Notes: a model not told the origin generated them from the letters alone. A stretch of 64,000 bases of DNA from an uncultured Acidimicrobiia bacterium (GCA_963721305.1 CAVRIR010000003.1:600884-664883), one strand, 5' to 3'. Numbered from the stretch's first letter, positions 10,923-34,660 are shown. Program-made: numbers and translations.

Positions 10923-10994
10923 GGCGGCGTGGCCGAGTGGCTTAGGCAAGGGCCTGCAAAGCCCTGTACACCGGTTCGATTCCGGTCGCCGCCT
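10923..10994 (+). tRNA. tRNA-Cys (anticodon GCA)
   Basis: GGCGGCG acceptor pairs with CGCCGCC. Anticodon arm agggc-ctgcaaa-gccct, T arm accgg-ttcgatt-ccggt, discriminator U. Confidence 0.9.
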
Positions 10995-10995
10995 C
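10954..10995 (+). repeat. attL-like 42-bp direct repeat (anticodon loop to 3' end of tRNA-Cys)
   Basis: ctgcaaagccctgtacaccggttcgattccggtcgccgcctc is identical to 22494..22535. Confidence 0.85.
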
Positions 10996-11811
10996 TACCA
11001 GAAGTGCTGGTCAGGGCCATGGAGTCGGCCTCCCAGGCTCGTTTGGCGCGTCAGGGCGCGTTGGATGGCGCGCCAGGTCCGCGCCATGACGTGCTGGGAG
11101 CGAGTCGGCGAAGGAACGCCGGCGAACGGCGACGGACGCAAGCGAACAGACGACGGGCGGTGCGGCCAGGGCTTCTGAGGCTCTGTCCCATCTGATGTCC
11201 ACCGGCAACTCGGCAAGGACCGGCGTCCGCACCAAGTGTCCACATGAGCCGGTCTCTGGCGCGTTGCTAGCTCGGTGTTGGCGATGTCGTTCCGGCGCGG
11301 GTGAATGAACGCGATGTGCGTCGGGAGCGCCAGTTGGGAGATGGTCCGTGGATGAGCGATACCGAGTAATTGGGCAGCCGTCGGCGCCAGGGGATGCGAG
11401 AAGAAGCGACACGCACCGGATGTCTCTGATCCGGCGTTCCATGGACGCGTTCAGTGCTCTCGGCGGGCTGAACATTCGGGGGCAGTCTGTGGACGATCGA
11501 TACCGAGCGGATCGCGACGTCGCGAATTCGTCCGTCAAGCGAGATGTATCGGCACATCCCGGTCGCCCGGATTGCAGCATGCGGCTGAACAGATCGGCAG
11601 CTATGTGCGGGACGCACCGCGCATCTCCACTCCACACACACAGCTCTGACGACGAGCCGGGGCCGTCGCCTGCCGCCACCATGCGCTCCCACCTAAACCC
11701 CATGGACACCGGCGTCCTCGACCGGGCGGCCGACTGGCTCGACGACTGCTCAATCCCGACCCGCACGCCGAACGGCAGAAGGACAGAGGCCGCCACGGCC
11801 TTCTCGACGAG

Positions 11812-12114
11812 CTAGCCCTCGATCAGCCACGCCATCGCGGGAATCACCAGCAGCCCCATGCCGATCTGGAACACCTTCCACGAGAAGCTCGCGGTCCGTT
11901 CAGACCAGCCAGCGTGTCGCGTGGCACTAGTCCAAGTATCGGTGTTGATCGACGGGCCCTGGCACATGAACGCGGCGAAGACAACTCCACCAAGTCCGAT
12001 TGCCAGGATCGCAGGGACCACCGTGCCCAGCGCAGCGAGCACCAGAAAGACGTGCACCGACGCCAACCCAATGAACGCCGTGCCGATCACCGCGCGTCCT
12101 CGGAGCCTGCTCAC
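11812..12114 (-). CDS. small three-TM membrane protein, hypothetical
   Basis: GTG 12114; VSRLRGRAVIGTAFIGLASVHVFLVLAALGTVVPAILAIGLGGVVFAAFM...VFQIGMGLLVIPAMAWLIEG. This is the C-terminal part of the 11812..12654 ORF. Confidence 0.4.
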   Translation of the reverse strand: MSRLRGRAVIGTAFIGLASVHVFLVLAALGTVVPAILAIGLGGVVFAAFMCQGPSINTDTWTSATRHAGWSERTASFSWKVFQIGMGLLVIPAMAWLIEG

Positions 12115-12226
12115 GTCGGTCGCATGCTGCCCGTTCTGGAGCGCCGTCGCACAGCGGAGGGATTGCTGGATGCGAGCGGCGGGAAGGGCACTTCTGCGCT
12201 GTGGAGGACAACAGCCAGTATGAGGT

Positions 12227-13040
12227 GTGGACCAGGACGCAGCGGTTGTCGAGATCGTCGAGTGGGCGAAGGGTGACGACAACATTCGGGCCGTAGTTCT
12301 CACGGGTTCCGGAGCGCGGGGCTCGGTCGGCGCTGATCCGCTTTCGGACGTCGATGTCGAGCTGTATGTCCGGGACCCGTCGATGCTGCTGGAGCGCGAC
12401 GGGTGGCACCGACGATTCGGACAGATCCTGGCGACTGAGTCGCTTCCGAACCAGGGTTGGAACCCGACCCGACTGCTGTACCTCGTGGACGGCAAGATCG
12501 ACTTCACCATCGTGAACGTCGATGAGGCGCATCGGGTAGTCCCCGACCGCGTGTTCCGGGTGCTGCTCGACCGCGACGGCATCGCGGAAACCATGAGTGT
12601 TGATCCGACGCGTCTGCGGCCTCCCGATCCGGGCGAGGTCTCGGAGTGCTGCAACTGGTTCTATGCCGCGGCACTGATGGAGGCGAAGCTCCTGGTCCGC
12701 GGCCAACTGTGGCAGGCGAAGTTCCGCGAGTGGGATCTGCTGCGCCAGCTCTTGCGCATGGTCGAGTGGGACCATCGAGCACGCTATGGATGGGACTACG
12801 ACACTTGGTACAACGGCAAGAACATCGACCGGTGGGCCGACGCCGATGTCCTGTCGGCAGCCCATGCATGTTGGTCGGCCCTTGAGCATGCGGACATGCA
12901 GCGAGCGTTACGAGCAATCGGTCGTTCTGTTCAGCACGCTCGAGCCACGAACTGCGAACAGCATCGGAGTTGACCCGTTCGGCCACGAAACCGTCGCAGC
13001 CGAACTCGAACGGCTGCTCGCACTCGACGGGCCGCAGTAA
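12227..13040 (+). pseudogene. aminoglycoside 6-nucleotidyltransferase (ANT(6)/AadK)-like protein, frame change near 12900
   Basis: N-terminus VVEIVEWAKGDDNIRAVVLTGSGARG...DVDVELYV resembles the ANT(6) family. The C-terminal helix region (YEQSVVLFSTLEPRTANSIGVDPFGHETVAAELERLLAL) continues in the 12786..13040 frame. Confidence 0.6.
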
Positions 13041-13140
13041 CACGCCGGGCGGGATCGGCACGTTCCGGACGGGTTGCGGCCCCGCAGACCAGCACGATCG
13101 ACGAGCACAGACATCACGCGCCTATCGCAGTTCTGGCGCG

Positions 13141-13536
13141 TCATTGATTGCTGTCCAGGGCGCCCTCCGCCGTCAACGCGTGGTGAGCGGCTAGAAACGC
13201 CTGACGGCCAGCCGGGGTGCCGCAATAGACCGTTGCGTGAGCAAGCGTGTCCTGTATCTGGGCCACGGTGACCCCGCTCCTCAACGCGCCCTTCACGTAG
13301 ATGCCGAGTTCATCGAAGCGACCCAGCGCGGTGAGAATGCCGAGATTCAGGATGCTTCGGGTCCGATGATCGAGACCCGTGTTGCTCCACGCTGACCCCC
13401 AGGCCCACTCCGTGACGATCCGTTGGAACGCCATCATGAAGTCGTCGGATTCGGCGAGACTGGTGTCGACGTACGCCGCGCCGAGCACTTCGCGGCGCAC
13501 TTGGAGACCCTTTTCGAACAACTCGCTCTCCGCCAC
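13141..13536 (-). CDS. carboxymuconolactone decarboxylase family protein
   Basis: GTG 13536 preceded by gagaggag. ELFEKGLQVRREVLG...LDHRTRSILNLGILTALGR...VYCGTPAG. The long N-terminal extension of the 13141..14070 ORF is rejected. Confidence 0.75.
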   Translation of the reverse strand: MAESELFEKGLQVRREVLGAAYVDTSLAESDDFMMAFQRIVTEWAWGSAWSNTGLDHRTRSILNLGILTALGRFDELGIYVKGALRSGVTVAQIQDTLAHATVYCGTPAGRQAFLAAHHALTAEGALDSNQ

Positions 13537-14135
13537 TGATCGGCTCCTCTCACGATCGCCGCAACACGTGGGTGTGATCAGCCGGCGATGCGCCGGCTGT
13601 CGCGGGTGACGCGATTGGCCGCGCCAGATTGCCCGTTCTGGAGCATGCCCGCACCCACCCTCCAATGCCGGGCCCAGCGAGCGCGATATCGGCATGTCTG
13701 AAGCAGTGGAAGTTGTCAAGAGAATGTTGCGCGTGTCGGCCGCTGTTGCAGCGTTGTTGGCCGTCGTGACGTGACGCGGGACGCGCGAGGTGAGCGCGCG
13801 GGCACGCGGTGGGAGGGCGGTCAAGGCCGGCCGACAGGCCGCCCTCTGGGGGAGCCTTGACGGCCCGGTCGTTACCGGGTTCGAGAATGTGGTGCCAAGC
13901 CGGTCACGGCTTGGCGGTGGCGTCGTCGAAGACGCGTTGCGCTGCTGTCTCCAGTTCCCCACGGGGTGTGGGGGGCAAGCAGACCGGGCTCGGTTGCTTG
14001 GACATGTCTTCGCCGGTCCCCGAGATCGGGGCCGAGCATGGAGCGGTGCGGCGCAGCCAGCAGTGCTCAATCACATATTGACGACCGCGAAGGTCATGCC
14101 GATACACGAGCCGGTCTGCTGGCTGCGTCCGAGCG

Positions 14136-15149
14136 TCACCCTGTCTCGACTGTCGCGAGGCAGCGGATCTCGCCGTCGCGTAGGCCGTAGTAGACGAGGG
14201 TGAGAAGTTTGCGGGCCGCGGCGACGCGGGCGATGTTGCGTCCTCGCCGCTCGGCGATGCGCCGATAGTCGTTCTTGATCTTGTCGTGGCCGTGGTTCTT
14301 GGACACCGCTTCGACCGCCGCCCACCGCAACAGCCGCGACCCTTGTTTCGTGATCGACCCGCGGCGGATCTTGGTGTCCGACTCCCGATGCGTGGGGGTC
14401 ATCCCTGCCCACGAACACAACCGGTGCGGCGAGTCGAACCTGGTGATGTCGCCGATCTCGGCCACGAACACCGCGGCCAACACCGGACCGACACCGTGCA
14501 ATGCTTGCACGGCGCGGTAGCCGGCGTGCCCGTCGAGCCGTGACGCGATCGTGCGGTCCAGACCGGTGATCTCGGTCGTGTAGATGCCGATGAGCCGACG
14601 CAGCGACTCCAGTCGACAGGCGTAACCGGCGGGCAGCTCGAGCGCGTCGAGCTGGGCGGTGCCACCGGGACCGAACATGTCCACCCGCGCTGGCAGCACG
14701 CCGTGTTTGCCCATCACCGCATGGACCTGCGCTTTGAGCGCGGACCGCAACCGCATCAGCTTGTGGCGATAACGGACCAGCTCCCGCAGCTCCCGCAGCT
14801 CCGGCGGGGCGATCCACGCCTCGGCCAGCCGACCCAGGCGCAACAGATCGACCAGATCATTGGCGTCACGTTCGTCGTTCTTCACCCGCCGCTTGCCCCA
14901 GTCGTTGCCCAACGGGTGCGCCAGATGCACGTGCGCGCCCATGTCGCGCAGCAAGTCGACCGCCCAGTACCACCCGAACGTGGCCTCCACGACCACCTCC
15001 GGCTCCGGACCGGCGGCCGCCACCGCCGTCGCCAACGCCAACGGGTCGTTGTCGATATGCACCTTCGACAACAACTCGCCCGCCGCGTTCTTGCGCACGA
15101 TCACCGACCGGCGGCGATGCAGATCGATACCGACATACTCTCGTTCCAC
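14136..15149 (-). CDS. IS110 family transposase
   Basis: YVGIDLHRRRSV (DEDD N-domain)...ERDANDL...LHGVGPVLAAVFVAEIGDITRF...ESDTKIRRGSITKQGSRLLRWA. GTG 15149 preceded by gaaagaagg. Confidence 0.9.
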   Translation of the reverse strand: MEREYVGIDLHRRRSVIVRKNAAGELLSKVHIDNDPLALATAVAAAGPEPEVVVEATFGWYWAVDLLRDMGAHVHLAHPLGNDWGKRRVKNDERDANDLVDLLRLGRLAEAWIAPPELRELRELVRYRHKLMRLRSALKAQVHAVMGKHGVLPARVDMFGPGGTAQLDALELPAGYACRLESLRRLIGIYTTEITGLDRTIASRLDGHAGYRAVQALHGVGPVLAAVFVAEIGDITRFDSPHRLCSWAGMTPTHRESDTKIRRGSITKQGSRLLRWAAVEAVSKNHGHDKIKNDYRRIAERRGRNIARVAAARKLLTLVYYGLRDGEIRCLATVETG

Positions 15150-15421
15150 AGGGACCTTCTTTCGTCGTGAGGGTGTTGCTTTGGCGAGCTCGAGTGTTGT
15201 TCCACTCGACCCCACACGACGAGAGGAGGCCCTCTTCGCGGTCGTCATCGTCGGACTCCCACACCTCGGCGCCGCCCGACCCCACGTCAAGCCGTCACGC
15301 AAGCAGCGGCAACTGCTTCATCGCGATCACATCCAGGTCGCCTGGACGAGCGAGGCTGCGCGTTACTTGGGTTGGTCCGAGGTGCGCGGTCAAGCTCTGG
15401 CAGATTCGTCGGAGGCGGTCT

Positions 15422-16039
15422 CTATTGCGATACCGCGGTTCCGAGGGAGTCGGCTCCCTCGAACTTCGGGGAGCCCTTTTCATAGAAGACGTCAACTTCG
15501 GCAATGTCAAAGCCCGCCTCCGTCAGCAGATCAACGATCGGACGGGTGAGATGGCATCCGCCGAGCATCCGCTTTTGGAGGGGCTCGACGCGTCGTTGCC
15601 AGTGGCGGACGCGCACGTCCGGTGCCAGTCCGTGTTCGAGGAAGTGCAGGGTTCCTCCTGGCTTGAGGACGCGTCGCACTTCACGCAAAGCCGCGGCGAC
15701 GTCGGGGATCGTGCACAGTGTCCACGTCGACAAGGCGGCGTCGTAGCTGTCGTCGTCGAACGGCAACGACTGACCGTCGAGGCCAGACCGCTCGACGGGA
15801 ACCTTCGTCGCCCGCACGCGGTCGTCGGCCAGCTTCCACGCAAGGTCGGCCGGCTCGACCGCGGCAACACGAGTGACGGCGTCGGGATAGAACGGGACGT
15901 TGAGTCCCGAGCCGAAACCGATCTCGACGACATCGCCCGCCAGACCTTCACACGCCCGGCGTCGCAACGGCGCAAGTGTCTTCATGCCGCCCGCGACGTT
16001 CATGAACCGAGGCAGGATCCGATCACCGTACAGACCCAT
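15422..16039 (-). CDS. class I SAM-dependent methyltransferase
   Basis: VVEIGFGSGLN motif I and LKPGGTLHFLEH. Confidence 0.85.
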   Translation of the reverse strand: MGLYGDRILPRFMNVAGGMKTLAPLRRRACEGLAGDVVEIGFGSGLNVPFYPDAVTRVAAVEPADLAWKLADDRVRATKVPVERSGLDGQSLPFDDDSYDAALSTWTLCTIPDVAAALREVRRVLKPGGTLHFLEHGLAPDVRVRHWQRRVEPLQKRMLGGCHLTRPIVDLLTEAGFDIAEVDVFYEKGSPKFEGADSLGTAVSQ

Positions 16040-16251
16040 GACGGCCTCCCCTCTCGCCGGGCAGCGTCACACATCTGCGACGATGCCACAAGGGATCACT
16101 ACCGCCGTCCTAGCGGTAGCGCGGGATAGCCGGATCACGCGCGACCGCTCGCCAACACGCAACCATCCGGGAACGCTCATCGGAACATTTCCGGATGGGT
16201 CGCGGCACCGGGCCACCCATCCGGGTTCGGCACGTATGCGCTGTGCGTGGG

Positions 16252-16656
16252 CTACGACCGTTGGGTCAGTTCGACGACATTGCCGTCCGGATCTCGATAT
16301 CGAGCTGACCGTCCCCACGGCTGCGAGTGTGGGGCGTGGAGGACCTCGGCTCCGGCCCCCACCGCACGGGCGTGAGCGGCATCGAGATCATCGACGTCGA
16401 ATCCGATCTGTGACCTACGGGTCACCGAGCCGTCCTTGGACGCGTAGAGCGCGAAGTGAATGAAGGCGCCCTCGGTCCACGACGTCGCGGCATGTCGCCC
16501 GCTGGTCCATCGATCGTTGCCATTGTGATCGCCCACGTGGAGGTCAAGACCGAACGTGTCGCGATACAGAGCTAGCGATCGGTCAAGGTCGCCGACCTCG
16601 AAGACAACGGCGACGAGTCGACAGTGTTCAGTCACGTCGACATCCTGCCGCGCCAC
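16252..16656 (-). CDS. VOC (glyoxalase/bleomycin-resistance fold) family protein
   Basis: 134 aa; VFEVGDLDRSLALYRDTFGL...RYRDPDGNVVEL. Confidence 0.8.
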   Translation of the reverse strand: MARQDVDVTEHCRLVAVVFEVGDLDRSLALYRDTFGLDLHVGDHNGNDRWTSGRHAATSWTEGAFIHFALYASKDGSVTRRSQIGFDVDDLDAAHARAVGAGAEVLHAPHSQPWGRSARYRDPDGNVVELTQRS

Positions 16657-16687
16657 AACGGCGGAAGCGGCACGTACCGGATGTCGT

Positions 16688-17514
16688 TCAATCGGCGACT
16701 GCGAAGGCGTAGGCGGCGCCGTTCAGCTTCCCGATCATGCGGTAGACGTGCCAGAGACAGTCACCGAGCATGATGCGGTAGTTCGTGACGCCGAACTCGT
16801 CGATGTACCGCTGCGGGTCGCGAAGAAGGCGCGCTGCATGGATCAGCCGGCGGCCTCCGGCACCGTCGCGTTCTTGGCGGTACTCGCCCCACTCGCTGCC
16901 GTAGTCAGTCGAGCCGACGACGGCGAAGCCGGCACCAGCGGCCGCGGTTCGAGATCCGCCGCTCGGACACTGTTCGCGCCGGCGCCCTCGCGCCAGAACA
17001 AGGCAGCTTCCCCGTCTGTCATCCGCTGCCCGGTCAACACCTGCACGACGTAGACCGTGCCGCCGGTCGTGAGGACCCGTCGGAACTCGTGGAACGCTGC
17101 GTCGAGGTCGGCGTACATCAGGCACTCCTTCGCCCACACCAGGTCCACAGAACCTCTCGGCAGCGGTAGCTGCTGCGCCGTTCCGCGTACGAAGGACACG
17201 GACGACGTCAACCCTGCAGACTCGGCGGCTCGGCGTCCAAGCTCGAGGTGACGCTCCACCGGATCGACACCGTGCGCCCGAAGCTGATAGCGGCGAGCGA
17301 GTTCGACCGTGTCGTCGCCTTCGCCGCAGCCCACGTCGACCGCGGAGGCTCCTCGGTGAGGGACCAGCCGCTCGAAGTCGGCCCACAGGCTGTGCGGACC
17401 GCGCGGGTTCAACGACTCGTCGAGCCTCTCCTGGAACCGCTCCTCGATCCGCGGAAAGTCGTCATACGAGTCATCGAGCGAAACTCCGTCGGCCACGCTG
17501 CGACTATGGCCCAC
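16688..17514 (-). pseudogene. class I SAM-dependent methyltransferase, frame change near 16935
   Basis: The 16843..17514 frame has VDVGCGEGDD...GGTVYVV. The conserved-looking tail (STDYGSEWGEYRQERDG...YRIMLGDCLWHVYRMIGKLNG) lies in the 16688 frame. Confidence 0.65.
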
Positions 17515-17584
17515 ATCACACGTTCACGTACGGGATCGGCTTCATTTCCCGGTCGCTCAGATCTGGCCCCTGCGGCGTGCGTCG

Positions 17585-18379
17585 CTAGGCGTGGCGGCCC
17601 CATGCTTGGACCATCCTCGGGCCGGCCACGAGCGTGGTCGGGTCGTCAGTGAGTGCTTGTAGCTCTTTGTGCGCAGCGTCGTATTCGTCGGCTCTCGTTA
17701 CGCCCGCGGCGAGGACGGCCGCCCTGATCTTGCCCATTGACATCTGCTGAAGCTGTTTGTGGGGGCCATCCAGATACGCAGCTTGGGCGACACGTACTCC
17801 CACGCCCACCAATCCCGCCTCGCGCAACAAGGCCGGAAGGCGAGGACCGATGTCGTTGTCGCCGCCGTTGCGGCGAACGGTCTCGCGGAACCACTCGACC
17901 CAGTGGTCATACGCGGGGCAAGCCGGTTCGGTAAAGCAACCCCCGAAATGCACGTCCTCCACGATGACCACGCCGCCCGACCGCACCGCATCCGCCATGG
18001 CCCCCACAACAGCCGCGGGATCGCGCAAATGCGAAAGCAGCATCCGCGCGAACGCAAGATCCAACCCCGAATCGACGAAGTCCTCCACCGGGCCAACCCG
18101 GAACGTCACGTTGTTCAACCCACGGGCGGCTGCCTCCTGGCGAGCTGCTCCTAGCAGGGCATCGTCAAGATCAACCCCTGTGACATGACCAGACGGCCCG
18201 ACACGTCGCGCCAGCTCCATCGTGACGTGGCCGCCGCCGCATCCCAGATCAACGCAGCGTCCCCCCGGCGCGACACCGACCATGTCGAGAACGACGAGCG
18301 TCGCAGGGGCGTGCACAGCCGCCAACAAGTCCATTCGCTCACGAACGCCCAATCCTCGTTCAATCGTGTAGTCGGCCAC
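17585..18379 (-). CDS. class I SAM-dependent methyltransferase
   Basis: GTG 18379 preceded by ggagggg. CVDLGCGGGHVTMELA...VRSGGVVIVEDV. Confidence 0.8.
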   Translation of the reverse strand: MADYTIERGLGVRERMDLLAAVHAPATLVVLDMVGVAPGGRCVDLGCGGGHVTMELARRVGPSGHVTGVDLDDALLGAARQEAAARGLNNVTFRVGPVEDFVDSGLDLAFARMLLSHLRDPAAVVGAMADAVRSGGVVIVEDVHFGGCFTEPACPAYDHWVEWFRETVRRNGGDNDIGPRLPALLREAGLVGVGVRVAQAAYLDGPHKQLQQMSMGKIRAAVLAAGVTRADEYDAAHKELQALTDDPTTLVAGPRMVQAWGRHA

Positions 18380-18568
18380 AGACCCCTCCGGGCTCACACA
18401 CACTCCAGGCACCACTCGCAAGACACATCGCCTCACTCGGGCGTCCAGCACTCATAATGCCGGTTCCTTCGCTCGCGTGCTGAGGCAGGAACCACGCGGT
18501 AACGCTCGGAGCCCGGCGTTTGGGGTCAGGGGATCGTCTGCCGAAGCCGGGCGTGGTAGCGCGATGGT

Positions 18569-20143
18569 TTGGCTGTGGGACACATCGTCATGGGATTGCT
18601 CTTCTTTCCGCGCGGCGGGTCGGCACAGGTCGCGCGCTACTTGTCGACGGCGTTGGCCGACGCCCACTGGTCGGTGGAGCTCGTGACGGGATCGCTGGGC
18701 GACCCCGGAGAGTTCACGCATGCGCCGTCGTTCTTCGCTGGAGCTCCTCTGCAACACCTGGATTACTCAGACGCGGTGCGAGTGTTCATGGCCGGCGGAA
18801 GCGCGATCTCTGCTCCCGTGCCTATGCACCCGTCGTACGAAGACCGCGAGGACGCGCCGGACGTGGTGTTTGCCGCGGTGCCGGACGACCTCGCCGAGCA
18901 TCTCTCGGCGGTGTGGGAGTCACCGTTTCGTGCCGCTGGGGCAGACCGTGCCCATGTGTTCCACCTCCACCACCTGACGCCGCAGCACGACGCGGTACGG
19001 CGTCACTGGCCCCAAGGTGCCGTCGTCGCTCACCTCCACGGCACGGAGATCAAGTTCCTCGAGGCGGTCAACGCACGCGCAGCACTTGCGAAGGCGGTGG
19101 GGACGACACTGGCGGGCATGCCCGCATGGGTCCGGGTCAACCCAGACGGGGGTGCGGGACTCGACGATCGCCAGCGCGAGCTGTTGCGCACTACGCGGTG
19201 GGATTGGTGGCAGTACGGCGCGGCCTGGCGCGATCGGCTCCTGCGTCAGGCCGACGCCGCGGACCACCTCGTCTTGGTGTCACCGACCGAGCGCGGCCGG
19301 GCTGTCGAGGTACTCGATGTCGATGCCGACCGGGTTTCGGATATCCCGAACGGCGTGGACGTGACAAGGTTCTGCCCACGACCGATGAGCCGGGAGGCGC
19401 GCCGAAACCACTTCAGGCGTTGGCTCGTCGAGGATCCCCGAGGCTGGAACGAAACCTCCGTAGCCGGCACGGTGGGATACTGCGAGGCGGACCTCGACCG
19501 GCTTCTGGGCCCCGACGGCGACGCGACGGTCCTGGTCTTCGTCGGGCGCTTCACCTCCGCCAAGCGGGTCCCGTTGCTGGTGCGGGCGTTCGCCCGCGCC
19601 AGGGCGCGGTTCGACCGTCCGGCATCCCTTGTGGTTTGGGGCGGATATCCGGGCGAGTGGGAGGGTGAACACCCGGTCACGGTTGCCGGCAAGATCGGTG
19701 CGGAGGGACTGTTCTTCGCCGGATGGAGGGGCCATGCCGATCTGCCCGAGGCGCTCGCCGCCTGCGACGCGCTGGTGATCCCGTCGGTCGACGACTCGTA
19801 CCCGCAGGCGCCGCTCGAGGCCATGGCTGTCGGCCTCCCGGTGATTGCCACCAACAGCGGCGGGTTCCCGTTCGTGGTCAACCTCGACCCCGCTCGACCC
19901 ACCGGCTGGCTCGTTCCGCCCGATGACGAGCGCGCCCTGTCAGAGGTGCTCGTCTGGGCGGTCAATCGTCCGCACGAGCTTTCTCGACGAGGCGACGCAG
20001 CGCTTGCACATGCCCGATCGCGCCTGTCGTGGGCCAGCCGTGTCGAGCTGTTCGAAGAGGCGTACGCGTCCGCCAGGGACTGGCGGGCAAGACGTGGCTC
20101 CGGCAAAGCAAGCAGCGCTGACCGCACGAACCGCGCACGCTGA
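18569..20143 (+). CDS. glycosyltransferase family 4 protein
   Basis: N-terminus GLLFFPRGGSAQV; C-terminal GT-B motif VIPSVDDSYPQAPLEAMAVGLPVIATNSGG. The start is uncertain: TTG 18569, GTG 18575 or ATG 18590. Confidence 0.8.
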   Translation: MAVGHIVMGLLFFPRGGSAQVARYLSTALADAHWSVELVTGSLGDPGEFTHAPSFFAGAPLQHLDYSDAVRVFMAGGSAISAPVPMHPSYEDREDAPDVVFAAVPDDLAEHLSAVWESPFRAAGADRAHVFHLHHLTPQHDAVRRHWPQGAVVAHLHGTEIKFLEAVNARAALAKAVGTTLAGMPAWVRVNPDGGAGLDDRQRELLRTTRWDWWQYGAAWRDRLLRQADAADHLVLVSPTERGRAVEVLDVDADRVSDIPNGVDVTRFCPRPMSREARRNHFRRWLVEDPRGWNETSVAGTVGYCEADLDRLLGPDGDATVLVFVGRFTSAKRVPLLVRAFARARARFDRPASLVVWGGYPGEWEGEHPVTVAGKIGAEGLFFAGWRGHADLPEALAACDALVIPSVDDSYPQAPLEAMAVGLPVIATNSGGFPFVVNLDPARPTGWLVPPDDERALSEVLVWAVNRPHELSRRGDAALAHARSRLSWASRVELFEEAYASARDWRARRGSGKASSADRTNRAR

Positions 20144-21210
20144 CATGTCTCGACCCATCTCGAAAGTACGCTCCGCACCGGCGGTATGGGAGGGTGCCGG
20201 TTGCCGCGCACGACGGCGGAATACGGGATGATTCAGGTGTTCGCGCCGCCGCGCGGGCTCGGGTCGTCCGGATTGCTCTGAGTGTGGCGGCGGGTACGGC
20301 GCGGGGCGGTCACGTCGCCCGCGCCTGACGGAGTTCTTCGATGACGGCGCGTCGCGCTTGCTCAAGCGCTTCGAGGTAGGTCGAACCCCCACGGCGCGCG
20401 ACCATTCCGACTTGATGGGATAAGCGCTGCTGGACATCGCCTGCTGTCGGACGCTTGACAGCGGCCGGCCACTGCGGACGAAGCAGCTGTGAGGCCGTTC
20501 CCTCCGTCCACGACGTGATGCTTTCGAGGAACTCAATCCCTAAGGACGGTGCACCATCTGTGGTCCATGCTGCCCAAGCCGACGCTGGTCCTTTCCTGGG
20601 AGGCGAAGGCTTGCGGGCGGCCTTCGAACTGGCAAACGCGAGACGCTCGCGCCGTGTCGTCGTCGCAGCAGACGACGCTCGAGAACGGAACCAACGACAT
20701 GACGATCCTCTCTGAGGTTCAGAAGAGGCGGCATGCCTGCGGGGCGGCAACCACAACCGGTCGTCCTGCCAACCAAGCGTCCCTTCGGGACAACCGCAAC
20801 TGTACCGCCTCCACAGCAGGTCGACCCGTCAGGACACGGACCGCATCGTCGGTGCACGGCACCGCACGACACGTCACTGTTCCGCGGCTCGCACGACGAG
20901 CCGACAAGGGTGCCACCGCCGGCGCCGAGCGTCAGATCGGGCGCAGCGAGGTCAACTGACAGGCGCATCGTCGGCGACAAGGTCCAGCCCTGCACGCGCT
21001 GAGCCGGCGATAAGGAATGCCCAAGATCGTTTAGGCGCCCGTCCCCCTCGGAGTGCTCTCGTTACCGTCTCGGCCCTGGATGTCTGCGGCGGCGCCGCGC
21101 ACCAACGAAGGAAGTGACTCGACTGACCTCGAGTGAACCGGCACATCCGGCGATGTGTGACACCAGCGGAGGATTCCTTCGTGCCGGGGGATGTCCAGTT
21201 TCGGCTGCCG

Positions 21211-21567
21211 TCACCCTTCCTCGCGGCTCCCGGCGAAGGTAATCGTGTTGCCGTTGGGATCGCTCACGCTGGCGATCGCGATACCCGATGACACCGTCTG
21301 CATGTCGGTCTCAACGCCGATGCTCGTCAAGTGCTCGGTTACGGGAGTGACCGTGTCCACGACCAGCGTCGCAACACATGATCCCGCTCCCTCCGACCGC
21401 TCGACACCGGTAGCCCGCCCGTACGGTTCAGTTGCCACGCGGCGAGGCCGTCCATCGGCGCCGATCGGGCGGACGACCGAACAGGGCGGTGTACCACTCG
21501 ACCCCGGCAGCGTGGTCGGTGACAATCATCTCGGCCAGGACGTTGGTGATCTCGGGCGCAGCCATGC
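21211..21567 (-). pseudogene. VOC family protein with two frame changes (about 21455 and 21425)
   Basis: Hand translation gives MAAPEITNVLAEMIVTDHAAGVEWYTALFGRPPD in one frame, PMDGLAAWQL...GGL in a second, and ERSEGAGSCVATLVVD...SDPNGNTITF in a third. Confidence 0.55.
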
Positions 21568-21648
21568 ACTCGTCCTACCTCATTGACAGCGACGCCAGGC
21601 CGCCCGACTTGCGTCTCACACGGAGGTCCGGGACGCATCGGCCTGCTG

Positions 21649-22113
21649 TCAGGCTGAAATGCCGCGACGTTCGAGCTCCACCCGCAGTCGAGCCGCATCC
21701 ATTTCCAACATGGATGGTTCCGCTTGGCCACTGCCAGTCCACAGCTCCCGCAGGAAGTCGAGGTTCTCCCAGATTGGAGCAGTGGGTCGGCCGTCGTCGG
21801 CGTGGCGAGGCGTGACCCACCAGTGCAGGTGAGGAACGCCGTTGCCGAGCGACTCGACGTTCGTCTTGACTGGGGAGAACACAGCGTCGACTGCCGCGCA
21901 CACCTCGGTCAGCTCAGCGAGATGACGTGATCGGGTGACTTCATCAAGGTGGTACATCTCCCTGATGCACAGCCGGCTGACGAAAAACGCGGCGCCTCTG
22001 TAGCGCTGGTTCCGGTGAAGGCGTAGCCAGCCCGTCTCCAGCCCCGCCACATCGCCAGGGCGAGGTTCGGTCTCCTGGAGCGCGTTCTCGGCGCAGAGCG
22101 GACATTTTCCCAT
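21649..22113 (-). CDS. HIT-like family protein (variant histidine triad HLHWWVTPR)
   Basis: 154 aa with an N-terminal CPLC; GNGVPHLHWWVTPRH occupies the position of the HxHxHxx motif, with the third His replaced by Trp. Confidence 0.6.
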   Translation of the reverse strand: MGKCPLCAENALQETEPRPGDVAGLETGWLRLHRNQRYRGAAFFVSRLCIREMYHLDEVTRSRHLAELTEVCAAVDAVFSPVKTNVESLGNGVPHLHWWVTPRHADDGRPTAPIWENLDFLRELWTGSGQAEPSMLEMDAARLRVELERRGISA

Positions 22114-22493
22114 TCCCGAACGCTATTGCTGGTTGCGGTTCTGCTCGCGGAACCGACTGCGAGAGCCAGGCTCTGGGCGGTCGGCCCGTCGGAGTGCTCG
22201 TGCCGTGGGCCTGCCCCAGATGTGCCGTACTCGGGCAGCCCGATTACGGACACGAACGCGACGGGTGACACGCCACAGCTCGCATCAAGTTCAGGAGCTG
22301 GTTACGACGCGGCGCGCGTTGTACAACGAAGTCGTCACCCACAACTCGTACCGCGCGCGTGGCGTTGCGAGACCGTTCCATGGCGCGTGGATGGCGCGAC
22401 CGCTGACGTTCGCCTCGGCTCGGTGATGTTCGACGCAGCGCGGTGACCAGCATTTTCGTCCGTCGGCGTCCGTCTGTGACCGTACGCGGAGGA

Positions 22494-22535
22494 CTGCAAA
22501 GCCCTGTACACCGGTTCGATTCCGGTCGCCGCCTC
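22494..22535 (+). repeat. attR-like orphan 3' half of tRNA-Cys (42-bp direct repeat; followed by CCA)
   Basis: Identical to 10954..10995. The upstream 5' half is unrelated to a tRNA. The sequence reads ...gcctcca here and ...gcctcta at the left copy. Confidence 0.85.
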
Positions 22536-22992
22536 CAACGTTTGAGCAGGTCAGGCGCTTGTCGCGTGAGACAGCGAACGGCACATCACCATCGTCATCG
22601 TCTCGTGCCTTTCTCGTCGTGGGGAACCGCGACGGGCACTCCTGATGACAACAGTGCGTTTGCCTCTTACGAGCCACGCCGCGGACAGGACACTGGCGGC
22701 ACGGCTGTTCGTTTAACAGCCAGACCCGTGGCCGGCAGGCACTTCAAGAGCCGAACCGCCAGCACCCTCGACGCTACGAGCAACCCCGTCGCGCCAACCC
22801 GATTCTCAATCGGGCACTTCTGCGCTGTCGGTGGTGGTGTTCAGATGCGCGCCGGTCGGCTTGGAGGAGGTGCTTGTGTGACAGCTGACCGAGGTCTTGT
22901 CGCGACGAATTAGTTGTCGAGCGGCGCCGGTGGCGCGAGGTTTTGGCCAGTCGCCTCAGGGCGGGGACGGCTGGGGACTGGGGGCGTGTCCG

Positions 22993-25503
22993 ATGCTGGG
23001 ACGCTGGGTTGTTGTGCGTGGGCTGGCAGTTCGGGGCATTGGGGGGCGCCGGTCTCGGTTGGGGCGTGTTGGTTTGGTCGTGTTGGTTGGGGTCGCGTTG
23101 TTGGGGTTGTCGGGTTGTGTGGCTGATCCGCCGCCGCGGATCGGGTTGGCGGTTGCGGGGAACGGTGAGGCGGCGTTGTCGTGGCAGCCGCCGCTGGCGG
23201 CGCCGTTTCCGACTACGAGTTATCGGGTGACGCCGTGGGTCGGTCAGGTGGCACAGACACCGATGGTGGTGAGCTCGTCGGCCACGACTTCGACAGTGAC
23301 TGGTTTGAGCAATGGGCTCGCGTACACGTTCACGGTGACGGCGGTTGACAGTCGTGGTGACGAGAGCGCGTCGTCGGGCCAGTCGAACCGGGTCACGCCG
23401 AGTGCGGTGATCCCGGCGGTCACTTCGGTCGACGCCGGTGGAACGACGTCGTGTGCTCGGGTCGCCAACGGCACGGCGGAGTGCTGGGGCAACAATCCGG
23501 TCGGCGAGTTCGGTAACGGCACGACTGCCAACTCGAACATTCCAGTCATTGCCGCGATTGGCCATGTCTTCAGCACGGTCGAGACCGGCGGGCTGGCGTC
23601 TTGTGGGCTGACCCCCTCGAACACGGTGGAGTGCTGGGGTTACAACCTCGACGGCGAGCTGGGCAACGGCACCACTACCACCTCGACCACCCCTGTGCCC
23701 GTGACCGGGATCAGCAACGCGACCGCGATCGCGGCGGGCGGACGGCACGCGTGCGCGCTGCTGAGTGGCGGCACGGTGCAGTGTTGGGGCTACAACGCGT
23801 CCGGCCAGCTCGGCAACGGCACCACCACCAACTCTTCGGTGCCGGTGCCCGTAAGCGGGATCACCACCGCCACCGCCATCACGGCCGGGCACTTGCACAC
23901 CTGTGCCCGCCTCGCTGACGGCACGGTGCAGTGCTGGGGCAGCGCATTCGGCGATGGCTCCAACACCGACTCATCCACTCCCATCGCGGTCAGCGGGATC
24001 AGCACCGCCACCGCCATCACCGCCGGGTACGTGGATACGTGCGCCCTGCTCACCAATCACACCGTCGAGTGTTGGGGCGCCAACAACCAAGGCCAGCTCG
24101 GCGATGGCTCCACCACCGACTCGTTCAGTCCGGTCGCAGTTAACGGGATCACGTCCGCCACCGCGGTCGGGGCGGGCGACGTGCACACTTGCGCGGTCCT
24201 CACCGGCGGCACGGTGAAATGTTGGGGCTACAACGCGTTCGGCCAGCTCGGCAACAACACCACCACCAATTCGTCCACCCCCGTCACCGTGACCAACCTT
24301 CCCGCCGTCACCGCGGTCGCTGCAGGAGCCAACCACACCTGTGGCCTGCTCACCGGCGGCACCGTCGCCTGCTGGGGCGACAACGGCGTCGGCCAACTCG
24401 GCAACGGCACCACCACCGGCGCGCCCACCCCGGTCCCCGTCGCCTGGCCCGCTCCCGTTGCCATCACCGCCGGCACCGAGCACACCTGCGTCCTGCTCAC
24501 CGGAGGCACCATCGCCTGCTGGGGCCGTAACCAATTCGGGCAGCTCGGCAACGGCACCACCGTCGACTCGTCTACCCCTGTCGGGGTCATTGGGATCACC
24601 CAGGCTGTCGCCGTTGCCGCCGGCGGCGAGCACACCTGCGCCCTGCTCAGCGACAACATCGTCAAGTGCTGGGGCCGGAACAATTTCGGCGAGCTCGGCA
24701 ACAGCAGCTTGACCGACTCGTCGACCCCGGTCGCGGTTACCGGGATCAACAACGCCATCGGCATCGCTGCCGGCATTGGGCACACGTGCGCCGTGCTCAG
24801 CGGTTTCCACCTCAAGTGCTGGGGCAACAACTCCTTCGGGCAGCTCGGCAACGGCAGCACCGTCAATGCCGTCAGCCCTGCCGACGTGACCGGGATCTCC
24901 ACTGCCACCGCCATCACCGCCGCCAGCTCGCACACCTGCGCGATGCTTTTGGGCGGCACCGTCAAATGCTGGGGTGGCAACTTGCTCGGCCAGCTCGGCG
25001 ACAGCACCACCGCCGGCTCGACCACGCCGGTCGCCGTCACCGGGATCACTACCGCTGTCGGTGTCACCGCCAGCGGCTTCCACACCTGCGCCCTGCTCTT
25101 CGACAGCACCGTCGCCTGCTGGGGCAGCGGAGGCAGCAACGGCACCAACACCGACTCGTCCACCCCCGTGCCGGTCTCCGGGATCACCACCGCCGTCAGG
25201 ATCACCGCCGGCGACTCCCACACGTGCGCCCTGCTTACCAGCGGCACGATCGAATGCTGGGGTTTCAATTCCCTAGGCCAACTCGGCAACGGCACCACCA
25301 CCGACTCGATAACCCCGGTCGCCGTCACCGGGATCACGACCGGCATCACCGTCTACGCCAACGCCATCACCGCCGGCACTGAGTACACCTGCGCCCTCCT
25401 GACCGGCGGGACCATCGACTGTTGGGGCCTCAACACCCAGGGACAGCTCGGCAACGGGACCACCATCGACTCGCACACCCCTGTCGAGGTCGTCTGGCCC
25501 TAG
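22993..25503 (+). CDS. lipoprotein with one FN3 domain and 14 RCC1-type beta-propeller blades (two tandem 7-blade propellers)
   Basis: ATG 22993; signal plus lipobox LLGLSGC. FN3 pattern (LSWQPP...YRVTP...[19 protein letters not shown]). 14 occurrences of the CWG-x4-GQLGNG blade motif. Confidence 0.85.
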
Positions 25504-25629
25504 ACCGCCACCTCTGCTCACGCAGCGATACGCAAACGCCCGAGGATTGTTGACGCCGAGGCATGCAGAACATCAGCGGCGGAAATGCCGCCTACCGCGT
25601 GAGCGGTATCGGCACGTCCCGGCGGCGGG

Positions 25630-26055
25630 TCAGGCGGCGGCCACGGTGACGGTAAGGGCAGGCCCGAGCGCGCACAAAGCGCCGGGCCGGCAGGTGACGA
25701 CCGTCCAGATGTTCGCTTGACCGGGTACGGCCGCGGTAAACGTTCTCCGAGGCGGGCTGCACGTCGTATCGCACGAGTCGTTGGTCTCCAAGGTCGGTGC
25801 GAACTGCTCGTTGCCACCGACCCAGTGCAACTCGGTGGGGTCTACGTTCACCTCCAACTGTTGGTAGACGCGTAGCGTTATCGGCGTCGGGGTCTGACCC
25901 TTGACCAGCGTGACGATCACAGGGTCGGGTGACGGCTGGCCCCGCGTGGTGCTAGTCGAGCCGAAGGAGGGCTGGCCGCTCGTGTTGCTGCTCGTCGACC
26001 CGCAACCCGCGGCCACGACGGCTGCGAGAAGCAAGACACACAATCGCAGTCTCAT
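25630..26055 (-). CDS. small lipoprotein, hypothetical
   Basis: MRLRLCVLLLAAVVAAGC lipobox followed by a Ser/Thr-rich linker. ATG 26055 within the 25630..26088 ORF. Confidence 0.55.
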   Translation of the reverse strand: MRLRLCVLLLAAVVAAGCGSTSSNTSGQPSFGSTSTTRGQPSPDPVIVTLVKGQTPTPITLRVYQQLEVNVDPTELHWVGGNEQFAPTLETNDSCDTTCSPPRRTFTAAVPGQANIWTVVTCRPGALCALGPALTVTVAAA

Positions 26056-26381
26056 ATGACGCACCGTTCGCTGCAGTAGCCCAAGCACCGTCGCTCAAGC
26101 GGACGGTATTTGGGACGCTCGATGTCGGCGTCTGGTTCCCTGAACTGCGGTCTCACTTGTCGCCTGGCGAACCGCACCCATCCCGTATTGACGGATCTGA
26201 GTGCGATGTATCAGGCACTTATGAGCGGTGCGGATCGGCCCCTAGGTCGCGAGTATGCCCCTTCGGGTCGGCCACATCGCGCCGGCGGGGGACGGCGAAA
26301 TCTGCTCAACTTCGGACTCGGGTGGTGTTCGAGACGGACGACCTCGTCCTGAACTCGGTGCACATCCTCGGAGGGGACACG

Positions 26382-26801
26382 ATGAGCGATTACTCACAGG
26401 GACCGGGTTGGTGGCAGGCGACGGACGGGAAGTGGTACCCGCCAGATGCGACGGCCGCAGGGCAAGGTGCCTTCGCGCCTGTTCCGTCGAGTGGACAGGA
26501 CGTCGACGCGAAGGGATTCGTGCGATCGCTCTACGACTTCAAGCTCGACCACTTCGTCACGCCGAAGGTCCTGCGGTTCATCTATGCCATTGTCGTCATC
26601 CTGCTGAGCCTCGGTGCCGTGCTGTTCCTGCTCGCCGGCCTTAGCTCGGGCGACTCGTCGAGCGCAGTCGCCGCGCTCATCGGCGTGCCGATCGCATACT
26701 TCCTGTACTTGGTGTTCACCCGCATCTATTTCGAACTCATCGCCGCCTTCTTCCACATACACGACGACGTGCGGGCGATCCGTCGCAACAACAGATCCTG
26801 A
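26382..26801 (+). CDS. DUF4282 domain-containing membrane protein
   Basis: ATG 26382 after ggagggg. GWWQATDGKWYPP then FVRSLYDFKLDHFVTPKVLRFIYAIVVIL...YLVFTRIYFELIAAFFHI. Confidence 0.7.
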   Translation: MSDYSQGPGWWQATDGKWYPPDATAAGQGAFAPVPSSGQDVDAKGFVRSLYDFKLDHFVTPKVLRFIYAIVVILLSLGAVLFLLAGLSSGDSSSAVAALIGVPIAYFLYLVFTRIYFELIAAFFHIHDDVRAIRRNNRS

Positions 26802-27024
26802 ATCCTTCGGTTGCGTGACATCGTTACGAGTGACGCGGAGACGTTCTCGGAACTCGGGCGTTCCCATTGCTCGAGGCGCGGTTCTAGCGCCCCGGGTGTC
26901 CCCTGTCGGCGCCGAGAGGTGCTCGATGACGGCACGTATACGCGCTCTGAGCCCAATAGTCGTCGCTACAGATGCGTTATTCTTTCAACGGCCGCGGCGT
27001 CGGCGGGACGGTAGCGTCGCGTGC

Positions 27025-27855
27025 ATGCGTGGGCGGCTTGGCACCATCACCGTGTTGTCGGTACTCGGCCTGCTCGCCGCCTGTGGAAGCGACAAGGCGA
27101 CGAGTTCGTCATCGTCGGGGCCACAATCTCGGAGCAGTTCCTCGTCGACCGCAGTACCGAGCCTGTCGGGGACGGCGTGGACACTGACGAGTTACCTGGG
27201 CGCCGGCGGCACGATGGTGGCGTCATCGCCGGGCGCCGCGCTCAGCTTTGCTGCTGACGGGACTTTGTCGGGCAACACTGGATGCAACTCGTTCGGCGGG
27301 ACGTACACGTCCGCTGACTCGAAGCTGACGATCAGGCTGGGACCGATGACATTACGGGCATGTGCCGATCCGGCAGCCATGGCACAGGAGACCGCGATCG
27401 TCCAACAACTACCCACGGTGTCCAGCTACACGACGACCGGAGGCGTGTTGACGCTCACGGGAACGAACGGCAGCCCGTTGTTCATCTACGCGATGTCGAA
27501 CAACACACTGCCGGGAACGTCGTGGCAGGTGACCGGCGTCAACAACGGTCGGGGAGGTGTGGAGTCGACGGCCCTGACCGAACAGCTCACCGCCACCTTC
27601 GGCAGCGATGGGACGTTCACTGCTTTCGGTGGTTGCAACCAGCTTGCCGGGCGCTACACGACCACGGGCACCTCGGGGCTCGCGGTCGGCCCGTTGAGCG
27701 GAACCGACAAGTCATGCAGCAGCGACGTCGACCAGCTCGAACACGAGTACTCGACCGCGCTGGCCCAAGTAGCCAGCTACGACATCATCAACGGCACACT
27801 GACCATGCGGGACCGCCAAGGTTCAACTCAGGTCACCGCCATCGCCGCCCACTGA
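27025..27855 (+). CDS. lipoprotein with two META (HslJ-like) domains
   Basis: LGLLAACGS lipobox. Two copies of the W.L..Y.....GCNSFGG.Y-type pattern (GNTGCNSFGGTYT; FGGCNQLAGRYT). Confidence 0.8.
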   Translation: MRGRLGTITVLSVLGLLAACGSDKATSSSSSGPQSRSSSSSTAVPSLSGTAWTLTSYLGAGGTMVASSPGAALSFAADGTLSGNTGCNSFGGTYTSADSKLTIRLGPMTLRACADPAAMAQETAIVQQLPTVSSYTTTGGVLTLTGTNGSPLFIYAMSNNTLPGTSWQVTGVNNGRGGVESTALTEQLTATFGSDGTFTAFGGCNQLAGRYTTTGTSGLAVGPLSGTDKSCSSDVDQLEHEYSTALAQVASYDIINGTLTMRDRQGSTQVTAIAAH

Positions 27856-27985
27856 ACCTTCATCGCCTCACTTGTCGTGGGCAACTCACAGATGACAAGC
27901 CGCCACGCCCGCCTGTCAGTGTCGGGCACTCGATACCTGCAACCGCGTCCGAGATCGGCACGTTCCGGATGTCTGCCAGGAGTAT

Positions 27986-28291
27986 GTGACGCTCCGCAGA
28001 GGTGATCCGATGACCGATGCTCAACAGGAGCCGGACCACTGCCCTCGGTGCGGGCGACGGTTGCCGTCCGCGACAGCAGGCGGACAGATCGGCCAAGTAC
28101 CGCGTGCACCCCAAGAGTTGTGTTCCTGGTGTCTCACGGGGCATGGACCGACGTGGACCGACCTGGGCACGCTCCGCAACACGAGAGGGCGACGCTTCAA
28201 CCTCCGACTACAGCGGAGATTGAGCCGGTGGTCTGGCGACGAAGTGACCTACAAGCTTGACCCGCCTGACCCCGACGTGGACACGAAGTAA
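27986..28291 (+). CDS. hypothetical protein with possible zinc ribbon (CPRC...CSWC)
   Basis: ORF only; two CxxC pairs. No recognisable family. Confidence 0.3.
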   Translation: MTLRRGDPMTDAQQEPDHCPRCGRRLPSATAGGQIGQVPRAPQELCSWCLTGHGPTWTDLGTLRNTRGRRFNLRLQRRLSRWSGDEVTYKLDPPDPDVDTK

Positions 28292-28520
28292 CGAAGCACT
28301 TACGAGCGGGTGCAGGTCAGCAGCTATGGGTTCGATAGTCCGATGCGCTGAGCCTCGATCACGACCGTGTCGCCGCTCTGCATCTCGATAGCGATGCCCG
28401 AACCATGCTCGACCTCGATCGGACCCTCGAGCCCCAGAACGCGCCGTCAATCGGATCGATCTGGTCCTCCATGGGCGTCGGTTCCTCCTTCGGTTCCGCG
28501 AGCTTGACACCCGCGGAGCG

Positions 28521-29552: not shown

Positions 29553-29733
29553 GATCACTCCCCACTCGAGGCGAAGCAGGGAATCTTCCAGGCGCGGCAG
29601 CACGGGTCAAGCACCGCGTTCGCGGTCGGGTGCGAAACCCGGCGAGAAACGGCCTGTGTCCCCGCGGCCTGTATCGCCTCGAGATCGACCCAGTCCTTCG
29701 TACGGTTGAAGAACGGTCAGGTCACTCGGGCGG

Positions 29734-30063
29734 TCACCCCGAGTCGGGATGCCAGAACGCGTCGCGCTCAACGGCGAAGACGACGCCGTTGATCGCCCAG
29801 TCCAGCCGCTCTTGGATCTGGTCTGAGTCGCCGCGCCAGTCGGGCCACCTACCTCCGGCTGGCATCGCGATCGTCATCGTCGAACGATGCTCCGGAGCGA
29901 ATCGAAAGCCATGGCGCGACTCGATCGCGTCGATTGCCTGGGCGCTGAGTCCCGTAGTCAACTCGGCTCCGCAGGTGTGCAGGGCCTGTTCAATGTCAGC
30001 CTCTCCACTAGCGCAGAATGCCGCCGGTTCCTGAGCGGGATGTATCGCCACATATGCGCTCAC
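29734..30063 (-). pseudogene. SMI1/KNR4-like protein fragment (C-terminally truncated or frame-shifted at 29735)
   Basis: LSAQAIDAIESRHGFRFAPEHR...WPDWRGDSDQIQERLDWAINGVVFAVERDAFWHPDSG then a stop. A GDRPSDL-type continuation is visible in another frame. The region then runs into the cupredoxin gene. Confidence 0.4.
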
Positions 30064-30240
30064 AAGCTCGGCGCCGATGAGCTGCCACGTCGCGTCGTTA
30101 CGTGCAGGAGTGTCGGCGCGACGGCGCGACGAGCGTAACAGTCGATATGTACGCCTTCCCGCCCGCCAAGAAAAAGCGCGAGTAACCCGGCTCGTCGTCC
30201 GCTCCCTGGGAGGCCCGACGGAGATGGTTCGCGCTGTACT

Positions 30241-31718: not shown

Positions 31719-31771
31719 CAAGAGCGCCTGTACCTGGCATTTCCGCGCATGTGCTCACACGGTGCCGAGTT

Positions 31772-32591: not shown

Positions 32592-32714
32592 CGGTCTATC
32601 GAATAGCAGATCAGAGCCAGACCTCCCCGCCGACATCCGGCATCCGCCGATAAGACTTGCGGAATGCTGCTACCACTCGCGGGCCACCCGTTCACCGCGC
32701 CGGTGGACCGCGAC

Positions 32715-34589: not shown

Positions 34590-34660
34590 TCGAGGTCAAC
34601 CCTCCTCGCGTTTCGTTTTCCGTAACGAGACTGTACCGTCGTCGTTACTGATTCCGTAAC

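Follow-up and report, generated by a model that had tools for sequence, protein, structure and literature searches.

The 64,000-nucleotide stretch of DNA analyzed here (the window; CAVRIR010000003.1:600884-664883) comes from an uncultured bacterium that is placed in the Acidimicrobiia by relatives of its aldehyde dehydrogenase (ALDH) sequence. The ALDH gene (9343-10791, minus strand) is the left neighbour of a tRNA-Cys gene, and the 3' half of that tRNA gene recurs about 11.5 kb further on. The interval between the two copies, 10996-22493, is the genomic island considered below. The tRNA gene, the two copies and the attachment (att) arms beside them were located as follows:

10923..10994, plus strand: intact tRNA-Cys(GCA), called by ARAGORN and Rfam; the 5' part would be chromosomal and the part from the anticodon loop onward element DNA (attL)
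10954..10995, plus strand: proximal copy of the 42-nt att core, an exact match to 22494-22535
10996..11100, plus strand: putative P' arm, the element-derived flank of attL, with GTGCTGGTCAGGG at 11004-11016 and GGCGCGTTGGATGGCGCG at 11055-11072
22384..22493, plus strand: P arm of attR, element-derived by its alignment with the arms beside orphan copies in relatives
22494..22535, plus strand: distal, orphan copy of the 42-nt att core (displaced tRNA 3' half), an exact repeat with no tRNA call
22536..22555, plus strand: flank outside attR, native-like, beginning CAACGTT

ARAGORN placed the tRNA-Cys(GCA) at 10923-10995 and Rfam (RF00005, 63 bits) placed it at 10923-10994; its 5' half was identical at 31 of 31 positions to that of a relative, contig L204. 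The 42-nt string CTGCAAAGCCCTGTACACCGGTTCGATTCCGGTCGCCGCCTC was found exactly at 10954-10995 and at 22494-22535 on the same strand; it starts where the anticodon loop starts (CTGCAAA) and ends one base beyond the discriminator. These were the only two copies in the window, and no third was present within it even with 13 mismatches permitted. By our own estimate the expectation for such an exact pair arising by chance in 64 kb is about 1e-16. No tRNA was called at the distal copy by either program, and no tRNA 5' half lay upstream of it. A preliminary description of this locus, made from the sequence alone, had reported the intact tRNA gene, the exact recurrence of its 3' half and the lack of a 5' half before the second copy, and all three observations held. 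The second complete tRNA that it might have overlooked at 22494-22535 was looked for with ARAGORN and Rfam and is rejected.

The approximately 110 nt inside the distal copy (22384-22493) were placed in a multiple alignment with the arms of five contigs carrying the same core. Local alignment scores of this P arm against shuffled sequences gave z values of 15 (L191), 9.0 (L144), 8.8 (L180), 8.6 (L100), and 5.6 (L205). The inner flanks, queried by blastn without the core, yielded no match, and the arm homology was seen only by multiple alignment. The P arm contained the motif GGCGCGTGGATGGCGCG (22382-22398) and, twice, GTCCGT, at 22458-22463 and 22468-22473. At 22443-22452 the sequence GTGACCAGCA was complementary in nine of ten positions to TGCTGGTCAG at 11005-11014, beside the proximal copy; in the original attP this pair would have formed an inverted repeat around the core. 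Within the family, an arm motif (CGCGTCCATCCCGCG) was found at two fixed places, +70 to +84 after the core and -97 to -111 before it. The window had the variant GGCGCGT(T)GGATGGCGCG, and the 10-nt GGATGGCGCG occurred only twice in the 64 kb, at +68 to +77 from the proximal core and at -105 to -96 from the distal core.

Beyond the distal copy the sequence was different in kind. The flank outside it had no significant similarity to the P' arms of the family, and comparison with native flanks showed tRNA-Cys to be followed by CAACGTT in L204, as in the window, by CAACG in L001, and by CAAATGTTCTGGCAGGTCAG in L209. By homology, these comparisons show the DNA just inside the distal copy to be an element arm and the DNA beyond it not to be one. 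For the DNA that follows the proximal copy, a weaker motif match points to its being the other arm. Because the distal copy is preceded by a homologous arm and the flank outside it is unlike the P' arms, the proximal copy is assigned to the element and the distal copy to the displaced original. The preliminary description had reached the same assignment by another route, namely that the distal copy is followed by CAAC (..gcctCCA) and the proximal copy by TAC (..gcctCTA). The assignment stands on the arm homology; the argument from CCA and CTA does not, being non-diagnostic on its own, since CCA was common after intact and orphan copies alike (45 of 63 and 28 of 40 copies of the 42-mer in metagenomes, respectively).

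A further feature, seen in the flanks downstream of the 42-mer in loci L081-L210, was the sequence GC(T/A)GGTCAG(G), located 10-20 nt past the tRNA end in about one quarter of both intact and orphan copies. Some contigs had it as the 3' arm of a terminator-like hairpin, and the rest had this arm alone.

The exact 42-mer was common in soil metagenomes, with at least 120 contigs containing it, in addition to three IMG/VR contigs. Altogether, 75 copies were intact tRNA-Cys genes and 48 were orphan 3' halves. Contigs L205 and L206, with ALDH proteins 91% identical to that of the window, contained tRNA-Cys, then 2.6 kb with a PF00589 integrase gene alongside a few small open reading frames (ORFs), then an exact orphan 42-mer. 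In contigs L207 and L208 (ALDH 90%) the same layout spanned 3.9 kb; the integrase there is split, and the orphan copy differs from the 42-mer at two positions. The element coordinates were 7227-9936 in L205 and 3543-7487 in L208. A larger element of at least 7 kb, in L137, added an HTH_17 protein, a helicase, a Prim-Pol, and a D5-like protein. When the L205 integrase was used as a tblastn query (E <= 0.01), about 45 of the 130 metagenome and relative contigs were matched, and most of these carried the 42-mer.

Among loci that kept the ALDH-tRNA-Cys synteny, about ten different sequences followed the tRNA. The core side of the locus (GATase_3, MurT, Usp, YhhN, and tRNA-Gly) was syntenic in most of the close relatives examined, L205 being an exception, and the tRNA side differed in each of them. 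In a search of genome contigs the ALDH relatives were at most 85% identical; among these only L001 kept the tRNA beside the ALDH gene, and that contig stops 141 nt past the tRNA.

Two pairs of contigs gave additional observations on this site. L209 (21-62) and L210 (1117-1158), which came from different samples, encoded an identical ALDH protein and had different DNA directly after tRNA-Cys. L210 carried a different integrase, 30% identical to that of L205, less than 200 nt from the tRNA. The contrast between the two contigs points to strain-level turnover at the site. L117 (5251-5521) and L127 (5680-5950) each had two orphan 42-mers 229 nt apart, neither with a tRNA 5' half, and these pairs look like the scar of repeated integration and loss.

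That the repeat has nothing to do with integration, and is a duplication, whether by chance or segmental, or else a piece of another tRNA-Cys gene, is so improbable that it can be set aside: the distal copy has no tRNA call, a conserved att arm precedes it, and the identical architecture encloses integrases in relatives.

Genes of the interior were sought by Pfam comparison of all six frames of 10900-22700 (E <= 0.1). The integrase, recombinase and helix-turn-helix models PF00589, PF00239, PF07508, and HTH_17 had no match in any frame, and no excisionase, relaxase, FtsK/Tra or replication domain was found. Tblastn with the family integrases (E <= 0.01) gave no match in the window, and tblastx of the intact elements and of all contigs bearing the 42-mer revealed no backbone remnant in the island. 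Megablast of the island against plasmid and phage collections also gave no match. The integrase genes of L205 and L100 begin 0.8-1.15 kb inward of the orphan copy; at the equivalent distance the window held fragments of a VOC-family gene and about 1 kb of unassignable DNA. The absence of an intact integrase or excisionase claimed in the preliminary description was therefore confirmed by a six-frame search that included the two models, PF00589 and PF00239, it had put forward.

The interval 10996-22493 is very probably the remnant of a tyrosine-integrase element that inserted in tRNA-Cys and lost its integrase while keeping both att sites. The attL/attR interpretation, first put forward in the preliminary description, is strengthened by the integrase elements with the same core in relatives, by the P-arm homology and by the paired motif. 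The proposed mechanism follows the established behaviour of tyrosine integrases that target tRNA genes (PMC4383910). The attP of the element would have carried tRNA-Cys from the anticodon loop to the 3' end, and this part is the 42-nt core. Recombining with the tRNA gene of the chromosome would have rebuilt a working tRNA from a chromosomal 5' part and an element 3' part, giving attL followed by the P' arm, and would have displaced the original 3' half to the far end as attR, with the P arm before it. Later, the integrase and excision module would have been lost, an IS110-type insertion sequence (IS) would have entered, and some cargo genes would have been disrupted. At least one gene-sized patch, a GT4 glycosyltransferase gene, is near-identical to a gene that a related bacterium carries in other surroundings. 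We infer this order of events, and also that a single element delivered both arms.

Several observations weigh against this reading. The arm motif of the window has GGATGG where the family has CCATCC, and the proximal flank had only weak similarity to the P' arms of the family (z 0.5-5.6). The elements of the family that were seen in full are small (2.6-3.9 kb) and had no comparable cargo, and no cargo gene of the island was found in any integrase-bearing relative. The deviation of the island in composition is small and close to the host. The GT4 family is widespread, with thousands of Acidimicrobiia homologues, so part of the interior need not have come with the element. Lastly, no empty site was seen at the DNA level for this lineage, and the only relative that appears empty (P0001, available as a gene table) implies an insertion of 31 kb rather than 11.5 kb. 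As in the elements of L205/L206, L207/L208 and L137, the remnant had the same 42-nt core, a homologous P arm, the same spacing of the paired motif, and the ALDH-tRNA-Cys neighbourhood; unlike these elements, it had no integrase, a variant arm motif with weak P' similarity, and no cargo in common with them.

Between the att arms the following genes and gene-less stretches were found:

11101..12226, no strand: gene-less stretch of about 1.1 kb with short internal direct repeats, no Pfam match in any frame
12227..13040, plus strand: ANT(6)-like nucleotidyltransferase with a frameshift near the 3' end (PF04439, E 7e-33)
13141..13539, minus strand: CMD / PcaC-like decarboxylase, apparently intact (PF02627, E 5e-16)
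14136..15302, minus strand: IS110-family transposase, single copy (PF01548 and PF02371)
15422..16039, minus strand: S-adenosylmethionine (SAM) methyltransferase 1, intact (PF08241)
16252..16656, minus strand: VOC/glyoxalase-family gene 1, intact (PF00903, E 4e-16)
16688..17523, minus strand: SAM methyltransferase 2, split by one frameshift (PF13649/PF08241)
17585..18451, minus strand: SAM methyltransferase 3, intact (PF13649/PF13847)
18543..20185, plus strand: GT4 glycosyltransferase block of 1.64 kb, coding sequence at 18569-20143 (PF00534/PF13692/PF13439)
20186..21210, no strand: gene-less stretch of about 1 kb, no Pfam match and no tblastn match to the family integrases
21211..21574, minus strand: VOC-family gene 2 with two frameshifts, read from translation, no Pfam match
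21649..22113, minus strand: HIT-like gene, apparently intact (PF01230, E 2.6e-4; a weak match, 22.0 bits against a cut-off of 21.5)

With the exception of the second VOC gene, which was read from translation only, the gene content listed in the preliminary description was recovered by the six-frame Pfam search. The cargo genes encode assorted enzymes that modify small molecules; they give no evidence of a coherent pathway, nor of any bona fide resistance gene. The ANT(6)-like protein fell far under the cut-offs of the NCBIfam ANT(6) (resistance-gene) models. The CMD gene scored 131.6 bits with TIGR02425, just short of the cut-off of 155.7, and the transposase scored 199 bits with NF033542 against a cut-off of 140. 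The NCBIfam label that the transposase passed reads 'IS110 family RNA-guided transposase', and a relative of this protein, 43-60% identical, was located elsewhere in contig L204 (18159-19265). The island did not have the structure of a composite or IS-bounded transposon, as its one IS110-type transposase is internal and the bounding repeat is tRNA sequence.

Frame disruption was visible in three genes, with four frameshifts in total, rather than in the four or more genes claimed earlier. In the ANT(6)-like gene the C-terminal part runs on in another frame, in methyltransferase 2 the conserved C-terminal part lies in a different frame from the Pfam match, and VOC gene 2 runs through three frames, one each for its N-terminal, middle and C-terminal parts. 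The frameshifts lie at about 12.93 kb (ANT(6)-like gene), at about 16.85 kb (methyltransferase 2), and at 21.4-21.5 kb (VOC gene 2). Since the frameshifts could be assembly errors, they do not establish that the island is old. A split gene was also found in a contig that may belong to the same ENA project, to judge by a similar ERZ accession.

In the gene-less stretch adjoining attL, a direct repeat was found at 11344-11366 and 11485-11507. The segment 11403-11436 was similar to 16664-16697, just upstream of VOC gene 1.

Comparison of GC and tetranucleotide composition, proposed in the preliminary description, gave a real deviation, albeit a small one that did not stop at the island. The island had a GC content of 0.660 versus 0.676, GC at third codon positions of 0.70-0.79 in cargo genes versus 0.82-0.90 in the core genes of the left flank, and a tetranucleotide correlation to the core of 0.957-0.972 versus 0.973-0.989. 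The deviation in GC and tetranucleotides spans from about 10 to 42.5 kb, and 22536-42336 resembles the island.

The island interior as a whole was not found in any relative examined. Among the 213 loci fetched, cargo was represented by the GT4 gene (L213), a 50% identical relative of methyltransferase 1 (L153), which adjoins an orphan att copy, and the distant IS110 relative in L204, and by nothing else. The GT4 block (1644 nt, 18543-20185) had 95.4% nucleotide identity to L213 165-1808, where it has unrelated flanking genes and no att copy. The boundaries of the block were sharp, 26-47 nt outside the coding sequence. The interior looks like a mosaic from related bacteria, and some of its pieces may postdate integration.

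An extension of this view is that only a small element, similar to that of L205, was integrated and that gene-sized recombination patches and IS activity then built the interior in place, overwriting the integrase. The GT4 block with its different context in L213, the IS110 transposase, the host-like composition, and the small size of the cargo-free family members seen in full would all agree with such a history. Nevertheless, the larger member in L137 (at least 7 kb, with helicase, Prim-Pol and D5-like protein) makes cargo-bearing forms plausible. Assembly in place is regarded as rather unlikely, and the loss of the integrase from a tyrosine-integrase element remains the preferred account of 10996-22493.

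The right-hand limit of the variable DNA was examined by gene order. The two closest relatives, P0001 and P0002, are contigs of 34.7 kb and 136.7 kb from JGI sample 3300047160 and were compared as gene tables. In the closest, P0001 (ALDH 96%; gene table only), a series of genes sets in no more than 555 bp past the ALDH gene: one of 208 aa, a GDSL lipase gene of 452 aa, and an SBP_bac_5 gene. Their counterparts in the window lie at 42337-46303, the first two of them within 42.3-44.5 kb; spacing and sizes agree closely with P0001, and exactly for the lengths of 208 aa and 452 aa. The 208-aa protein of the window was 100% identical to P0121, and in P0139 and P0122 the 208-aa gene stood in non-syntenic surroundings. 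From the gene order of P0001, about 31 kb separate the tRNA from the backbone in the window. The repeat-bounded 11.5 kb is probably the first module of these approximately 31 kb of variable DNA, with about 20 kb lying beyond the distal copy. Accordingly, the RCC1 gene that adjoins the island on its right is probably not conserved chromosomal flank. The empty site that the preliminary description predicted, with the RCC1 gene immediately after tRNA-Cys, was not found; P0001 has the 208-aa gene and the GDSL lipase gene instead.

The DNA beyond the distal copy was recorded as one feature:

22536..42336, no strand: further variable stretch, not repeat-bounded; annotated with Pfam, and absent between tRNA-Cys and the 208-aa and lipase genes in the P0001 table

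This stretch contained two RCC1/fn3 genes, DUF4282, a cupredoxin, a methyltransferase, DUF2293, a hydrolase, PNPOx, PIN, CMD, an ECF sigma factor, a BTAD/NB-ARC regulator, and a luciferase-like gene.

The variable DNA as a whole may have accumulated by tandem accretion, the 11.5 kb being the youngest module and 22536 to about 42336 an older island at the same tRNA that lost its far att copy, so that about 31 kb would be foreign to the backbone. Such a history is entirely possible, if somewhat short of probable. The gene order of P0001 fits it, as do the different genes that P0002, L204, and L205 each carry in the interval after the tRNA, the deviation in GC and tetranucleotides up to 42.5 kb, and the two-orphan scars of L117 and L127. 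Against this, the window had no third att copy with 13 mismatches allowed, no integrase or transposase was present in the ORFs tested at 22.9-49 kb, and the outer flank of the distal copy looks native (CAACGTT) and is unlike the P' arms. Furthermore, if 22.5-42.3 kb is ancestral, a deletion in the P0001 lineage would yield the same gene table.

The island cannot move on its own, and both of its att sites, core and arms, are intact. Excision by an integrase acting in trans is conceivable because both att sites are intact. The description of the element as old and immobilised thus held in part: it is non-autonomous and without detectable integrase, while its age is not established and trans excision is possible.

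The island might accordingly be mobilisable in cis or trans rather than a dead relic, being excised and moved by an integrase (and any excision factor) from a related element, which could lie elsewhere in the genome or reach the same tRNA later. The exact core and the paired motif kept in both arms speak for this, and related integrase elements are abundant. The P arm, core and P' arm were found together in L180, L171, and L191, as expected of an excised circle or tandem junction, and L138 (P-core-P') and L181 (tRNA-core-P') had one P' flank in common. Elements of this kind have been described as cis-mobilizable elements (CIMEs; PMC5704250). There was, however, no sign of excision in the window, 42 nt are too short for perfect conservation to argue selection, and the integrase-bearing relatives seen have another arm motif than the window, so that no matching integrase was identified. 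On balance mobilisation is unlikely, and the preferred reading is a remnant. More doubtful still is the proposal that the island is the cargo half of a two-part system in which the small integrase elements (2.6-3.9 kb, abundant in soil Acidimicrobiia) act as donors of integrase and would excise and move islands that lack one of their own but keep matching att arms. If that were true, the tRNA-Cys hot spot would trade cargo modules with no recombinase needed for each module.

Among actinomycetes, pSAM2 (tRNA-Pro) and SLP1 (tRNA-Tyr) are tyrosine-integrase elements whose attP carries the 3' part of the tRNA gene and regenerates the tRNA on integration; they encode integrase, excisionase, replication, and transfer functions. 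Unlike these elements, the island had none of the integrase, excisionase, replication or transfer domains in the six-frame Pfam search.

CIMEs were first described for ICESt1-related islands of Streptococcus thermophilus. The island agrees with their published definition (PMC5704250) in that attL and attR are kept and genes for integration and transfer are absent, movement in trans being putative. It also lies at a site where related elements integrate, and accretion is conceivable. It differs in that descent from an integrative and conjugative element (ICE) or integrative mobilizable element (IME), as well as mobilisation, is only putative here, and in its host, an uncultured actinobacterium and not a firmicute.

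The Islander survey of tyrosine-integrase islands lists 3760 with a 3' fragment and 2083 whose attachment site is centred on the anticodon (PMC4383910). Like the tRNA islands of that survey, the island is marked at its ends by an intact tRNA gene and, on the same replicon and in direct orientation, the displaced cognate 3' fragment, whose boundary falls at a canonical sublocation, the anticodon loop. Unlike the islands of the survey, which must contain an integrase inside the interval, it has none, and Islander would filter it out for that reason.

The island is of an ordinary, well-understood kind, and its overall importance is modest. It marks the tRNA-Cys gene of an uncultured soil Acidimicrobiia lineage as a busy integration hot spot, and it could be assigned to an integrase family through its att arms although it has no integrase; such islands would escape methods that require an integrase gene within the interval.

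Some minor features of the DNA to the right of the island were also recorded. The genes at 22897-25503 and 35352-36884 were paralogues with an fn3 domain followed by RCC1 repeats, the RCC1 units appearing as 150-nt periodic repeats. An 89-nt 'tRNA-Pro' called by ARAGORN at 35401-35489 is probably a false positive, because it lies inside the RCC1/fn3 ORF at 35352-36884 and has no Rfam tRNA match. A PIN-domain ORF was located at 33403-33888, the ECF sigma factor at 36993-37601, and the BTAD/NB-ARC/TPR regulator (1142 aa) at 37902-41330. In the P0001 table (coordinates 1-4214) a second integrase, a Prim-Pol/AAA_25 protein, and small ORFs were listed beyond SBP_bac_5. At the equivalent place the window has an alcohol dehydrogenase gene and a DUF2461 gene.

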